Below, in pieces: positions 34,936 to 38,970 of a stretch of DNA of 48,192 bases (within the stretch, counting starts at the first letter, position 1; every line of letters starts with the position of its first letter). Location: the sequence record SRR20825006_720, one strand, 5' to 3'. The translations under genes and the position numbers were made by a program. Under the pieces are notes generated by a model. The model was not told the origin of the DNA, searched no databases, and saw only the letters and a program-made list of their open reading frames with translations.

Positions 34936-35130
34936 GGGGTTTTTTGCGCTTGAGACCAATCCTTCTTGGCTTTTCTATCAAAATTGTATTAACAATTAAA
35001 ATATCACTCCTTTTTTTGTGAATAGCTTATCTGCTCATAACATTTTGATAACAATAACATTTAGGACTTGGAAAAATGCATATTATAATGTATAATGATA
35101 GTTTATAACACTAGTAAACCAGATACAAGA

Positions 35131-35994
35131 ATGAGGCAGCTAAAAATCATCAAACAGGTCACGAACCGTGAATCCAAATCACTTGACAAATACTTGCAGG
35201 ATATCAGTAAAATCGATTTGATCACCGCGCAGGAAGAAGTTGAGCTAGCACAGAAGATCAGGGCCGGAGACCAAGCTGCTTTGGAAAAATTGACCAATGC
35301 AAACCTAAGGTTTGTGGTATCCGTTGCAAAACAGTACCAGAACCAAGGGTTGAAGCTCCCAGATTTGATCAATGAAGGAAATGTTGGATTGGTAAAAGCA
35401 GCCAAGCGTTTTGATGAAACCCGTGGGTTTAAATTTATTTCTTATGCTGTTTGGTGGATTCGCCAATCCATTCTGCAAGCTTTGGCGGAGCAGTCCCGTG
35501 TGGTACGTTTGCCATTGAACAAAATTGGGTCAATAAATAAAATAAAAAAGACATTTTCCTATCTAGAGCAAGCCCATGAGCGTCCGCCGTCCCCAGAGGA
35601 GATTGCCAAAGAATTGGACATGACGGTTTCCGAGGTGAAGCAATCATTGAAAAATACAGGTAGACACGTATCTATGGATGCGCCATTAAAGGAAGGTGAA
35701 ACTTCCAATCTATACGATGTTCTTAATGCCGGGGACTCTCCAAAACCTGACAAAGGGCTGATGCATCAGTCTCTGAACACAGAAATAAACAGGGCTTTGG
35801 ATACATTATCGCCAAGAGAAGCCGATGTGGTACGCCTGTATTACGGTATAGGTGACCAACCATCCATGACCTTGGAGGAAATTGGAAGCACTTTCGATTT
35901 GACCAGGGAACGTGTACGTCAGATTCGGGAGAAGGCAATCAGAAAATTAAGACATACATCAAAAAGTAAAATTTTGAAGTCCTATCTTGGATAA
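35131..35994 (+). CDS. rpoD: RNA polymerase sigma-70 factor, RpoD/SigA family (close to the Bacteroidota primary sigma, possibly a second copy)
   Basis: [51 protein letters not shown]. Start at the ATG at 35131. Confidence 0.93.
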
Positions 35995-36014
35995 GTCAAG
36001 ACAGTCAATAAATA

Positions 36015-36049
36015 GAAAAGGGGACGTTTTTTTACAACATCCCCTTTTC
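36015..36049. terminator. Bidirectional terminator between the sigma gene and the micropeptide genes
   Basis: GAAAAGGGGA...TCCCCTTTTC arms. Confidence 0.8.
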
Positions 36050-36068
36050 CATGATATACACTTAAACA

Positions 36069-36170
36069 TCATTGCTTGCTCAAAAGACTAATATCAAAGT
36101 CGGTGAGCATGTCTTTCAAATCTTGAATAAAATTCAAGTAAGCGGCGTTTTCTTTGTTAGGGTTTTTCAT
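36069..36170 (-). CDS. Unannotated micropeptide B (33 aa) MKNPNKENAAYLNFIQDLKDMLTDFDISLLSKQ
   Basis: Hand-translated. Paralogous to 36198..36296, TTACC-ATG start context, ends 20 nt before the terminator. Confidence 0.7.
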   Translation of the reverse strand: MKNPNKENAAYLNFIQDLKDMLTDFDISLLSKQ

Positions 36171-36197
36171 GGTAACAAGTTTTGGGTTGTTGGCTAA

Positions 36198-36296
36198 CTA
36201 TAGGTAATCAAGTTCGGCAAGTTCGTTTACCGTCAAAATTTCGTTTAGTTCTTGTAAAAAGGCTAAGTACTCTTCTCCGTAGGTATCGTATAACAT
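36198..36296 (-). CDS. Unannotated micropeptide A (32 aa) MLYDTYGEEYLAFLQELNEILTVNELAELDYL
   Basis: Hand-translated. Shares YLxF[LI]Q[ED]Lx[ED][IM]LT with peptide B and has the same TTACC-ATG context. Confidence 0.7.
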   Translation of the reverse strand: MLYDTYGEEYLAFLQELNEILTVNELAELDYL

Positions 36297-36410
36297 GGTA
36301 ATCTTTGGTTTTGGTTCGGGGGTTTTTTAGGTATAACGCAGTTTCACACATAACATTATGTTACTTTCACAAATTGTGGTGAACATATCAAATTATGGAG
36401 TGAAATATTT

Positions 36411-36764
36411 TTATTTCATATTTAAAATGTCGAGTTCAACTTCAAAATCAAGTTCGTTGTCTATTTTGCTCGGCCTAATATTGAACTCGTCATAAATAAA
36501 ACAAAGGTTCATGGGCAATCTTCGTCGTTCCGCATCGGACAACACGCCCAATTTTGACTGCAGTTCGTTTTTAACGGCAAAAGCCTTGTTACTGATTTTC
36601 GGATTGTGATGGGATTCCAATTCAGAAAGGAAGGGAATCTCTTTCCTATCCCCTACCTTCAACATTTCATCCAATAACATTAATTGGCACTCCAAGTCTT
36701 CCGTATGCTGGAACAACGGATAAAATATGCTTTGGAGGTATTCGGGCAGTTGGTTGTTTTCCAT
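36411..36764 (-). CDS. Hypothetical protein with a HEAT-like helical pair (117 aa)
   Basis: LLDEMLKVGDRKEIPFLSELESHHNPKISNKA resembles a PBS/HEAT repeat. Starts 12 nt after the upstream gene. Confidence 0.7.
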   Translation of the reverse strand: MENNQLPEYLQSIFYPLFQHTEDLECQLMLLDEMLKVGDRKEIPFLSELESHHNPKISNKAFAVKNELQSKLGVLSDAERRRLPMNLCFIYDEFNIRPSKIDNELDFEVELDILNMK

Positions 36765-36776
36765 CTTGACTGTGTA

Positions 36777-37556
36777 TTAGATTGCGCGGAATATTTCCAT
36801 TTCAAAATCTATTTGCTCTTGAATGCGTGGATATTCCTGGAGAAATTGATCGTACAAAAAGTCAAGGTGCTTTTTATCCCTATCCGTTTTGCACAACCTT
36901 GAAATTTGTTGGGTCACTTCCAAAAGCCCTGATGTCTTCATCATACGCAACGAAGGCATTATTTTTTGACAGGAAAGCTCGAGCTCTGTATAATTTTCGT
37001 TTATTAGATTGACTTTGGCACTTCCGACAAACTCAAAAATGTTTTGTTTGAACATGCGCACCAACTCTTCCAACAGTTCAATTTGCCCCATGCAATCCTC
37101 CAAAACGGGTTGGAGATCAATCTTTTGGGAAGAAAAACCAGCTTGAAGGCTCTTCTCAATAAATTCAAAATCGGTAGACATACGTTCTGTGTTTTTATTC
37201 TGATCTTGAGGCTTCTCTTGTATGTTCTGTATCCTTTTTTTAATCTCTTCCACAATACTTTTTTGTGGTTCAGAAAGATTTGTATCCTCCAAAGACTTTA
37301 AAAGCATCAAAATTTCACTATCATCTGGGGCAGTAAACGATTTGCTATCAGAGCCTTGGATGCCTACATTTTTGTATAGGTCTTCGAGCTGCTTCATTTC
37401 GGAAATCCCAAAAACTTTGCTTTCAAGTCCAAACTTGAACATTTCAAAAGTCTTTTTAAGTTCTCCAGCCTCAACTACTCCCAATTCTTCATAAGAAAAA
37501 GAACTCAAACCTATTTCAAGCTTTTCCAGATACGTTAACAATTCGCGTGTTCCCAA
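36777..37556 (-). CDS. Protein with a C-terminal Hpt-like domain lacking the phospho-His
   Basis: IDLQPVLEDCMGQIELLEELVRMF...SCQKIMPSLRMM matches the Hpt layout (AHK[IL]K.S) with Gln at the His site. TTG start. Confidence 0.72.
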   Translation of the reverse strand: MGTRELLTYLEKLEIGLSSFSYEELGVVEAGELKKTFEMFKFGLESKVFGISEMKQLEDLYKNVGIQGSDSKSFTAPDDSEILMLLKSLEDTNLSEPQKSIVEEIKKRIQNIQEKPQDQNKNTERMSTDFEFIEKSLQAGFSSQKIDLQPVLEDCMGQIELLEELVRMFKQNIFEFVGSAKVNLINENYTELELSCQKIMPSLRMMKTSGLLEVTQQISRLCKTDRDKKHLDFLYDQFLQEYPRIQEQIDFEMEIFRAI

Positions 37557-37683
37557 TTTTTTGCGTTAATGGTTATTAATCACATTAAAAATGTCGATTA
37601 AACTGAGGGATTACAATTTATTGTTCCGTAGCATTCGGATATTGTTGTCAAATTGCGTTATTTGTATGTGTAAAAAACCAACC

Positions 37684-38970
37684 ATGAAATATTTTTATTT
37701 ATTCCTTAGTATTACCCTGCTCATATCTTGCGGGGAGAAAAAAACCGAAACCAAAGAAGAAACCTTGGTAGAAAAAGCACAGAGAATCCACGATTCCGTA
37801 ATTACGATTGATACGCACGATGATATCAACGTTCAAAATTTTACGGACAGTATCAACTACACTCAGAATTTGGATACCCAAGTAAACATACCCAAAATGA
37901 AAGAGGGAGGTCTCGATGTAGCATGGTTAGTAGTGTACACAGGTCAAGATAACTTAACAACGGAGGGTTATGCCAAAGCATCTGAAAATGCAATCTCAAA
38001 ATTCGAGGCTATCCACAAACTTTGTGAGGAAATAGCTCCTGACGAGATTGAGTTGGCCCTGACCTCTGAAGATGTTAGAAGAATTGTGGCCGCAGGCAAA
38101 AAAGTGGCCATGATCGGTGTGGAAAATGCCTACCCAATTGGCGAAGACCTTTCTAAAATTGAAGAATACCAAAAGCGTGGTGCCCGATATATGTCCTTGG
38201 CACACAATGGCCATAGCCAATTGAGCGATTCCAATACAGGGGAGCAAGACAGTGTTTGGCTTCATAACGGATTGAGCGACCTTGGCAAAGAAGCGGTTGC
38301 AGAAATGAACCGTGTTGGAATGATGATCGATGTTTCCCACCCATCAAAAGAAGCGATGAAACAAATGATCGAGCTTACCAAAGCTCCGATAATCGCATCG
38401 CACTCATCGGCAAGAGCACTTTGTGGCCATAGCCGTAATCTTGACGATGAGCAATTAATGTTGATGAAGGAAAACGGAGGTGTTGTACAAACCGTAGCTT
38501 TTAGTTCTTACTTGAATACCGAGAAGCATGAAGCACGTTCCGCCTACATGTCGGAGGTGTACAAAAAAGTGGCAGATTCCTTGGGTCTTGCTTGGTACGA
38601 GCGCTCCCAATTTGGTTCGTTGACCGATGAACAGCGCGAAGAGTTCTTTGCCAATTACGGAAAAATCAGAAATATCGGCGAAGAATTGGCCGAAACCGAC
38701 CCCAACGTGCCACCTGCGGTGAACGTATCGGATTTTGTGGACCATATCGACTATATGGTGAAATTGATAGGTATCGACCATGTGGGCATTAGCTCCGATT
38801 TTGATGGCGGAGGCGGTATTGAAGGATGGTCGGATGCATCCGAAACCTTCAACGTAACCTTGGAACTCGTAAAAAGAGGCTATACCGAAGAAGAAATTGC
38901 CAAATTATGGGGCGAAAATCTATTAAGGGTATTGGATGAAGTTCAAGCGGTCGCCAAAACAATGAACTAA
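37684..38970 (+). CDS. M19 membrane dipeptidase lipoprotein
   Basis: Start revised to the ATG at 37684, lipobox LISC, DTHDD, GVENAY, IDVSH, ASHS, SDFDGGG, GENLLRV. Confidence 0.95.
   Translation: MKYFYLFLSITLLISCGEKKTETKEETLVEKAQRIHDSVITIDTHDDINVQNFTDSINYTQNLDTQVNIPKMKEGGLDVAWLVVYTGQDNLTTEGYAKASENAISKFEAIHKLCEEIAPDEIELALTSEDVRRIVAAGKKVAMIGVENAYPIGEDLSKIEEYQKRGARYMSLAHNGHSQLSDSNTGEQDSVWLHNGLSDLGKEAVAEMNRVGMMIDVSHPSKEAMKQMIELTKAPIIASHSSARALCGHSRNLDDEQLMLMKENGGVVQTVAFSSYLNTEKHEARSAYMSEVYKKVADSLGLAWYERSQFGSLTDEQREEFFANYGKIRNIGEELAETDPNVPPAVNVSDFVDHIDYMVKLIGIDHVGISSDFDGGGGIEGWSDASETFNVTLELVKRGYTEEEIAKLWGENLLRVLDEVQAVAKTMN

Follow-up and report, generated by a model that had tools for sequence, protein, structure and literature searches.

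LytTR-type regulators act at 9-bp repeats with a 12-bp spacer that lie 4-11 bp before the -35 box, and the regulons of AgrA and of the S. mutans LRS share such 9-bp direct repeats, 12 bp apart and immediately ahead of the promoter, some of the sites being at the locus of the regulator itself (PMC6193735). An HPt fold lacking the phospho-accepting His is found in Arabidopsis AHP6, which, as given in the cited section of PMC6963811, inhibits by competing for kinases and regulators. Hybrid kinases of the BarA/ArcB/TorS type carry HisKA, HATPase, REC and Hpt domains, PgaC/IcaA-like GT2 synthases occur in loci with YaiO, and partner switching of the Rsb/SpoIIA type involves an anti-sigma kinase, a STAS anti-anti-sigma factor and a PP2C phosphatase. 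AsiA, Crl, Sda and MgrB are small-protein regulators of sigma factors or kinases. Marine Bacteroidota have a second RpoD-like sigma, whose role is stated as unknown in the section of PMC3587595 that deals with sigma factors.

Here we analyzed a locus within a 48,192-nt stretch of DNA (the window) in which four minus-strand genes, encoding proteins of 259, 117, 32 and 33 aa, face an RpoD-family sigma gene. This arrangement had been described in the initial annotation, and ORF and domain annotation confirmed it with its coordinates, the sigma gene ending at 35994. No enzymatic motif remains in the four proteins, as had been remarked, and a domain search of the four found no anti-sigma kinase, STAS or phosphatase (PP2C) domain, in contrast to Rsb/SpoIIA-type systems. 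The anticipated co-conservation is present within Flagellimonas, where all five genes lie together in 30 of 30 loci, the four minus-strand genes being intact and under purifying selection (dN/dS values here and below come from 56 loci, of which 32 pairs, not independent of one another, were compared). A bidirectional intrinsic terminator (36012..36052, both strands) does serve both the peptide pair and the sigma gene, and its hairpin (36015-36049 on the plus strand, 36012-36052 on the minus strand) folds strongly on both strands, better than 200 of 200 shuffles on each (z = -4.2 and -7.0, respectively). Its stem is preserved across loci despite changed letters, and an RNA-library contig terminates at 36040, inside it.

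The four genes are real but are not one purpose-built module. The dedicated four-protein partner-switching module first proposed for them is not supported: the two larger genes are left over from a phosphorelay/polysaccharide operon, and the 32-aa peptide, p32, persists without them. Our preferred reading, to which we assign a probability of roughly 0.55, is that the locus combines an eroded surface-polysaccharide operon with a separate two-peptide unit, both being outputs of one undescribed LytTR system that includes an AHP6-like pseudo-Hpt and regulator-binding peptides. A literature search with little coverage of subscription journals found no description of the locus, the peptide family or the regulon.

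Direct repeats at two promoters and a LytTR regulator

The four genes had been taken as a single unit, but two promoter-like sites are found rather than one. At the p32-p33 promoter, a 9-N12-9 direct repeat occupies 36375..36404 on the minus strand, with its first half and the -7 box degenerate in this genome. The promoter of the 259-aa gene (37586..37651, minus strand) comprises a repeat at 37622-37651, a TTG box and a -7-like box at 37586-37593. Given the degenerate p32 site and -7 box, together with one RNA-library contig that starts at the 3' end of the 117-aa gene and continues across both peptide genes, read-through into the peptides may dominate in this genome. A matrix trained on repeat sites from regulator loci exceeded the null level ahead of p32 in 28 of 30 Flagellimonas regions and 36 of 38 others, and ahead of the 259-aa/kinase gene in 29/29 Flagellimonas and 6/6 other regions that the script could anchor, compared with 0/32 in the coding control; this test is only partly independent, since its training sites were selected with a regular expression originally derived from the promoters of p32. 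None of 31 sigma upstream regions scored above null. The pattern itself gave 86 matches, against 6 for its reversed form. The conserved 9-N12-9 direct repeat at a fixed distance from a Bacteroidota -7 box at both promoters is new here.

The same repeat also stands ahead of small-RNA-like units that follow the genes of a LytTR regulator and a TPR sensor kinase of matching distribution. Of 30 regulator loci, 29 have it no more than 700 nt past the LytTR gene, and a -7-like box follows it at a distance of 28 nt; in genome G153 it occurs up to five times behind this gene, and another 35-aa peptide elsewhere is under the same repeat. The regulator has a REC domain and a LytTR domain, and its gene is ahead of that of the TPR/HisKA_2 kinase. 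It is present in 49 of the 50 p32 genomes (the exception being G087) and in nine genomes without p32; the co-occurrences of regulator, peptides and sigma gene all fall within one clade and are mostly a matter of inheritance. The likeness to the AgrA and S. mutans regulons extends to the targets, RNA-like units and small peptides, whereas the repeat sequence is new, and the Bacteroidota -7 promoters and the arrays, in which as many as five short units follow one another, are points of difference. Compared with the AgrA system, the sensor is a TPR/HisKA_2 kinase instead of AgrC, and no pheromone or AgrB was seen. An LRS of the S. mutans type consists of a LytTR protein and a membrane inhibitor with no kinase, whereas here a REC-LytTR protein lies beside a kinase, which places the system outside the LRS class.

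Pairing of the small-RNA core with the start regions of the five genes at this locus ranked 11 to 32 among 39 window genes and gave no signal, and Rfam returned no gathering-level match in six loci. A perfect TTGACA-17-TATAAT at 36966-36994 (plus strand) is taken as chance because it lies antisense over variable codons.

The repeats could instead be read by another regulator or by an alternative sigma, in which case the unit would be under common control of a factor other than this LytTR protein. At the p32 and kinase promoters a near-palindrome coincides in part with the second repeat, the kinase promoter has a -7 box without its first T, and these genomes encode many response regulators, all of which would suit such a reader. 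However, the spacing and position fit LytTR sites as set out in the cited part of PMC6193735, and the best repeats are those clustered directly behind the LytTR gene, so that we consider a different reader improbable.

The peptides and the neighboring sigma gene

The p32 peptide (36198..36296, minus strand) is acidic, with a net charge of -8, is probably one amphipathic helix, and has no signal or membrane segment. Its neighbor p33 (33 aa; 36069..36170, minus strand) is a younger, faster-evolving paralog (dN/dS 0.087, compared with 0.008 for p32), and the paralogy proposed earlier is corroborated by hhalign (probability 96%, E = 3.5e-9). Both peptide genes are coding, as judged from these values and, for p32, from synonymous changes spread along its codons in 40 loci; a function of its coding region at the RNA level was rejected in view of the variable synonymous sites and the lack of a conserved fold. 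In the four runs that were compared, out of 22 listed, RNA-library contigs from two studies cover p32 and p33, and, being contigs, give neither a gene ranking nor start sites. Among the 251 Flavobacteriaceae genera sampled, 50 have p32, and GTDB genomes contain 446 p32 loci, with weak partial matches only in 168 genomes of other families, while p33 is found in 30/30 Flagellimonas loci and in 47 of the 50 p32 genomes. An Atlas search with p32 returned nothing, and neither peptide has a sequence family match in Pfam and PDB searches. p32 is retained after loss of the operon, there being no kinase match in G212, G153 and G087 and no HEAT gene at the locus in G128, G206, G105 and G133. Like AsiA, Crl, Sda and MgrB, p32 and p33 are short and conserved, with induction and regulator binding proposed for them, but they differ in lacking a match to any sequence family.

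The likeness of the peptides to sigma region 1.2, on which the first proposal had drawn, was not recovered: hhalign gave probabilities of 1.4% (p32) and 0.4% (p33) against a shallow region 1.2 profile of 12 rows, Pfam sigma models were matched by 0 of 21 and 0 of 30 peptide family members, and the PDB matches of the peptides included no sigma chain. Mimicry of region 1.1 likewise found no Pfam or PDB support, and the N-terminus of the 259-aa kinase was discarded as a third peptide paralog at hhalign probabilities of only 0.2-0.3%.

Phenol-soluble modulins are AgrA-controlled, and p32 and p33 might similarly be exported or membrane-active, shaping biofilm or spreading along with the polysaccharide, an idea favored by the presence of two small helical peptides in tandem, controlled from a LytTR-type site next to a polysaccharide operon, and by the 35-aa peptide under the same repeat. 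Against it stand the strong negative charge, the low hydrophobicity and an unremarkable helical moment (the best 11-residue value is matched by 10.5% and 7.4% of shuffles for p32 and p33), and the near-invariance of p32 suits a specific partner more than a physical role. Moreover, p32 occurs without a linked GT2 gene in 12 genomes and GT2 relatives occur without p32 in 33 genera, and the genes annotated at the locus include no exporter or transporter. A modulin-like role is accordingly a poor prospect.

The sigma paralog (287 aa; 35131..35994, plus strand, start from homologues) contains regions 1.2, 2, 3 and 4 by Pfam/NCBIfam, lacks region 1.1 and has a dN/dS of 0.007. It is additional to the housekeeping sigma, with which it shares 83% identity and whose gene lies elsewhere in genome G001. 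This genome has four RpoD-like genes; region 1.1 was not found in G001, and 6 of 14 control genomes match it. A candidate promoter at 35066..35100 (plus strand), consisting of a TTGGA-rich box followed by TGTATnnTG, is of another type than the LytTR-repeat promoters; by visual inspection it precedes most of the orthologues displayed. That the peptides travel with this gene proved correct, as all 45 genomes with a close sigma paralog carry p32, in 43 of them adjacent to it; co-occurrence of peptide and paralog reaches 46/47 and is mostly inherited. Genome G222 has both peptides and no sigma paralog, and in G105 the two are apart. A tree of the sigma gene, a single gene with weak support and apparently pulled by base composition, suggests several separate losses of the operon.

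Remnants of a kinase-to-YaiO operon

The 259-aa protein (36777..37556, minus strand, TTG start) is a hybrid histidine kinase that has lost its core by deletion, leaving a conserved N-terminal stretch of ~50 aa (37407-37556, minus strand), a variable linker and an Hpt fold (about 36786-37133, minus strand). The Hpt-like fold without its His, noticed from the outset, is borne out by a structural match of the domain model to HptB (Z 14.2, rmsd 2.0, 112 aligned), with all of the top eight VIA matches being HPt proteins (Z 12.3-14.2) and pLDDT > 90 across the domain. The position of the phospho-accepting His is taken by Gln197 (36966-36968), with Gln in 120 of 121 aligned sequences and Lys in the other. 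A single-sequence model of the entire protein reached pLDDT 39, Foldseek gave no match at E < 0.001, and a collapsed homologue matched PF01627 at E 1e-4, below the cut-off. The full-length form in related genera is HisKA-HATPase-REC-Hpt, as in BarA, ArcB and TorS; unlike those kinases, this ancestor apparently had no membrane sensor, just a ~55-aa N-terminal piece, and the Flagellimonas protein has no catalytic core, REC or His. All 29 loci that retain the receiver gene also have the Hpt His, and 6 of the 11 loci lacking that gene have another residue in its place (Q, R, G, Y, N and Q). The 259-aa protein resembles AHP6 in its fold but comes from bacteria, originated when the inner part of a hybrid kinase was deleted, has an extra N-terminal domain and carries Gln at the site; inhibition is a feature of AHP6, whereas receiver docking of the 259-aa protein is only predicted.

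The 117-aa protein (36411..36764, minus strand) comprises the last HEAT-like helical repeat and a C-terminal motif, and we identify it by homology as the tail of a 600-960-aa HEAT-repeat membrane protein. Its HEAT-like character, suspected earlier, is supported by a profile that, of 14 candidate proteins in other genera, matches 13 in their C-terminal part, and by its placement in Atlas HEAT clusters at 0.94-0.95. With about one repeat left, it has no direct Pfam HEAT match and is homologous to repeats of proteins carrying PF13646. A word search for longer homologues found 0 among 208 candidates; the link came from tblastn and the profile.

The ancestral arrangement began with the hybrid kinase and continued with a single receiver, a HEAT membrane protein, a GT2 synthase, an LTA-synthase-like sulfatase and a YaiO barrel, then p32, p33, the terminator and the sigma paralog, and the kinase-receiver-HEAT-glycosyltransferase-sulfatase-YaiO operon is still present in related genera. 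The 259- and 117-aa genes are, from this comparison of gene content, what is left over from that operon. GT2 and receiver were found in none of 5 Flagellimonas genomes searched, and the GT2 query has matches in 72 of 251 genera. The ancestral operon shares YaiO and a GT2 whose best NCBIfam match is PgaC_IcaA (below the cut-off) with PgaC/IcaA-like loci, but this window has neither a GT2 nor a YaiO gene, and the search of five Flagellimonas genomes did not find them either. A similar set of remnants (kinase N-terminus, Hpt, HEAT tail and peptides) recurs in other genera that lost the envelope genes.

Both larger genes are deletion products, His loss follows receiver loss, the homologue in G105 is clearly degenerate, and the association with the sigma gene is broken in G222 and G105; the two genes could therefore be decaying leftovers with no present function, and the sigma gene merely a neighbor sharing the terminator. 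However, they are intact in 37/37 Flagellimonas genomes at 47-99% identity (one match being cut to 95 residues at a contig end), their domains are constrained (dN/dS 0.028 for the N-terminus, 0.042 for the Hpt and 0.060 for the 117-aa protein) compared with the linker (0.29), and the promoter repeat is retained in 29/29, all of which makes simple decay unlikely. The earlier model of one partner-switching complex controlling the sigma paralog, with peptides mimicking region 1.2, can draw on the five-gene co-location, the recurrent remnant sets and the purifying selection on all genes, but is unlikely given the missing profile likeness and partner-switching domains, the separate promoter-like sites, peptides that persist without kinase or HEAT gene in seven genomes, and a co-location explained by deletion of the genes in between.

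A proposed circuit in marine flavobacteria

Comparison shows that Flagellimonas has lost the kinase core, the receiver and the three envelope genes, that the Hpt His has changed to Gln, and that the remnants have stayed under purifying selection. In the LytTR reading that we prefer, the REC-LytTR regulator, phosphorylated by the TPR/HisKA_2 sensor, is predicted to bind the 9-N12-9 repeats and to activate both promoters, along with small-RNA-like units and secreted-protein genes elsewhere, a step that we regard as quite probable. More tentatively, at somewhat under even odds, the His-less Hpt might still dock on a receiver without taking phosphate, damping or tuning signaling as AHP6 does. We slightly favor the prediction that p32 and p33 are cytoplasmic acidic helices docking on a conserved regulator. 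As a first, possible target, the neighboring sigma paralog or its holoenzyme may be considered; with its different promoter, the paralog would then be curbed while the LytTR programme is active. We would place a little less weight on a second putative target, the LytTR regulator or its kinase. It is doubtful, if conceivable, that p32 and p33 are new ~32-aa sigma-selectivity factors, induced by a LytTR master regulator of marine Flavobacteriaceae and binding and tuning near-identical RpoD-type sigmas (the older p32 the housekeeping one, the younger p33 the paralog found alongside it), with the pseudo-Hpt feeding back on the phosphorelay.

Little of the gene control of marine Bacteroidota has been mapped. 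In marine flavobacteria the peptides and operon scraps, placed under a common switch-like DNA signal beside a spare sigma, point to an undescribed gene-control circuit. The analysis yields a candidate master regulator with a candidate binding motif, a candidate target list with small-RNA-like arrays and a peptide as conserved as the sigma factor, and a natural series that leads from a kinase to a His-less Hpt after loss of its partner. If the sigma-selectivity reading were true, the locus would represent a lifestyle switch in a phylum that has no region 1.1 in its primary sigma.

Locus anatomy and ancestry

The initial annotation described four minus-strand ORFs facing a sigma-70-type gene across a shared terminator, and its positions were correct. 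The names of the nearest protein matches place the window in Flagellimonas (Muricauda). Genes for proteins of 259 aa (36777-37556), 117 aa (36411-36764), 32 aa (p32, 36198-36296) and 33 aa (p33, 36069-36170) face an RpoD-family sigma paralog (plus strand, 35131-35994; ORF called from 35095, homologues starting at Met 35131), and the hairpin between the peptide pair and the sigma gene folds strongly on either strand. The 259-aa gene is found in 37/37 Flagellimonas genomes vs 0/24 genomes from other families; in the 30 of these 37 whose loci were fetched, the expected co-conservation is seen, the order 259-117-32-33, terminator, sigma being unbroken in 30/30. Beyond the 259-aa gene lies a peptidase M19 gene (37591-38970, plus strand), whose homologues suggest a real start at the ATG at 37684, in which case 37557-37683 would be a divergent promoter region. 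A perfect TTGACA-17-TATAAT (36966-36994, plus strand), antisense within the 259-aa gene, is taken as chance.

In other genera, both conserved ends of the 259-aa protein sit in a single ORF, roughly 590-630 aa long, which places HisKA, HATPase, REC and Hpt domains between these ends and beyond them; because both ends belong to this full-length kinase ORF elsewhere, the 259-aa protein is, by sequence comparison, a hybrid kinase minus its core. The Hpt-like fold without its His, proposed initially, was borne out: the C-terminal half gives a confident structure model whose best eight structural matches are all HPt proteins (HptB Z 14.2), and the His site, Gln197, is Q in 120 and K in 1 of 121 sequences. 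In 40 loci selected from those available, the His is retained in 29/29 with a receiver gene downstream and substituted, using five different residues, in 6/11 without one; His loss therefore follows partner loss, and more than once. Short forms (N-terminus plus Hpt, His retained) occur next to an intact receiver gene, e.g., in the sampled genomes G254, G249 and G303. The kinase N-terminal piece (37407-37556, minus strand; ~50 aa, usually with a TTG start) is strongly conserved and often retained along with the Hpt after core loss.

A profile from 64 Flagellimonas copies of the 117-aa protein matches the C-terminal repeats and tail motif in 13/14 candidates from other genera, mostly of 600-960 aa, one carrying Pfam HEAT_2, and Atlas placed the 117-aa query beside HEAT clusters. 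The ancestral operon order is kinase, receiver, HEAT protein, GT2, LTA-synthase-like sulfatase, YaiO, p32, p33; GT2 and receiver were searched in 5 Flagellimonas genomes and not found in 5/5. Such losses lend some colour to plain leftovers, a reading against which purifying selection on all parts of the locus speaks: estimated over 32 pairs that are not independent, drawn from 56 loci, dN/dS is 0.028 for the N-terminal 50 aa of the 259-aa protein, 0.042 for its Hpt, 0.060 for the 117-aa protein, 0.008 for p32, 0.087 for p33 and 0.007 for the sigma paralog, compared with 0.29 for the linker of the 259-aa protein.

The peptides and the sigma paralog

p32 was found in 50/251 Flavobacteriaceae genera (one genome each); a wider profile recovered the same 50 genera plus two weak matches within long ORFs, and GTDB genomes hold 446 p32 loci. 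As initially proposed, p33 is a paralog of p32, and it occurs in 47/50 p32 genomes, while the suggested resemblance to sigma region 1.2 did not survive profile comparison, Pfam sigma models and PDB matches. No family naming p32 was found among the family databases searched; some databases enter it as a hypothetical protein. RNA-library contigs from two studies cover both peptides (36040 to 36295, and 36071 to 36428), indicating presence in the RNA library only. At one fetched locus (L109; G112:C91:3000-10000), the operon end and both peptides form an inverted duplication that may be an assembly artefact, and a single 77-aa record (P0122), derived from one 421-nt contig and possibly an error, fuses the two peptides in frame.

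Close copies of the sigma paralog (>=87% identity) occur in at least 45/251 genomes among the matches listed, with p32 in 45/45 and adjacent in 43; 253 weaker matches lie outside those listed, and divergent copies may be missed. G212, a further genome, carries a divergent copy adjacent to the peptides, which with the 45 close copies places the paralog in 46/47 genomes having both peptides. G222 has both peptides and no sigma paralog; in G105 the paralog is on a different contig, and in G112 the neighbourhood is split by a contig end. Three genomes with p32 and without p33 have no close sigma paralog among the matches listed. The tie to polysaccharide genes is looser: the linked GT2 is retained in 38/50 p32 genomes, and a more distant GT2 relative occurs without p32 in 33 genera. 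These co-occurrences are mostly inheritance, because all lie within one clade, and are no proof of interaction. The nearest genome, G001, carries three further RpoD-like sigmas (C1:174309-175166, C19:164160-165020, C82:255906-256766; sharing 67%, 83% and 59% identity with the copy in the window).

Despite synonymous codon variation, 13/32 p32 residues are invariant among 24 aligned copies, and conservation equal to that of the sigma factor points to a fixed cytoplasmic protein partner. By neighbourhood, the sigma paralog would be the best candidate, with the LytTR pair next; that p32/p33 form a new class of sigma-selectivity factor we consider unlikely. A four-protein switch, the initial proposal, has the unbroken Flagellimonas order on its side and the failed region 1.2 resemblance against it. 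Exported, surfactant-like peptides form another alternative; p32 has a net charge of -8, an unremarkable helical moment and, in sequence analysis, no membrane segment.

A promoter repeat at a LytTR regulator locus

The region upstream of p32 carries a direct repeat (9 bp, spacer 12 bp) followed by a TTG box; 28 nt past the repeat is a TAnnTTT(A/G)-like box, close to the Flavobacterium -7 consensus TAnnTTTG (PMC9723704). The same site, at 37622-37651 in the window, precedes the kinase gene. A genome-wide pattern search, with few control matches, found further copies. They precede short non-coding units that end in a terminator, as well as genes for an LRR protein, a 35-aa peptide, secreted proteins and a duplicated ECF sigma. 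The best copies sit in the interval flanked by a REC-LytTR gene and a TPR/HisKA_2 sensor gene (29/30 loci; up to five copies in G153). A matrix trained on regulator-locus sites and judged against a shuffled null scored above null upstream of p32 in 28/30 Flagellimonas and 36/38 other loci, of the kinase gene in 29/29 and 6/6, and of the sigma gene in 0/31 (coding control 0/32), a test just partly independent because the pattern selecting the training sites was drawn from p32 promoters.

Some other DNA-binding factor might instead read the repeat; the repeat layout matches LytTR sites (PMC6193735), and the LytTR regulator occurs in 58/251 genera, among them 49/50 p32 genomes. In the nine other regulator-bearing genera, no p32 was seen. 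The sigma paralog has its own upstream motif (35066-35100, plus strand), which differs from the repeat and is conserved across genera; it fits the usual TAnnTTTG box poorly and may be read by another sigma.

At L285:4749-6052 (G001:C1 about 352200-353550) and L288:2000-5630 (G153), one to five short units lie between regulator and sensor, each with direct repeat and -7 box and most also with a terminator; they are probably arrays of small RNAs. L145:1590-1680 and L126 (G001:C1 about 154900) hold a non-coding core that is U-rich, nearly invariant and closed by a terminator. It recurs across many genera, with two copies in G001, matches no Rfam family at gathering level and could pair with A-rich start-codon regions. 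The direct repeat also precedes a different conserved ~35-aa peptide gene (L135:1615-1722, L140:1611-1718; G001, G290), its product hydrophobic and basic at the C-terminal end, a 124-126 aa protein without a Pfam family, seen in two genera (L142:1613-1987, L143:1041-1421), and the second copy of a tandemly duplicated ECF sigma gene (L146:460-2269, G096).

Proposed programme

The comparison demonstrates anatomy, ancestry, selection and a common promoter site. The His-less Hpt would have been retained for continued binding, most simply to a receiver domain, as proposed by analogy with plant AHP6, a precedent of His-less Hpt binding (PMC6963811). No account of the peptide family, repeat motif or regulon was found in the literature searched, most subscription journals being outside its coverage; PMC3587595 states the promoter of a second flavobacterial RpoD as unknown, and this may not be the same paralog. 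Precedent exists for each kind of part: pseudo-HPt, LytTR regulons that include RNAs and peptides, and flavobacterial RpoD paralogs. The LytTR system would turn on a programme of surface or biofilm type. A polysaccharide operon with a phosphorelay of its own would originally have belonged to this programme, and the operon remnants and peptides would belong to it still.
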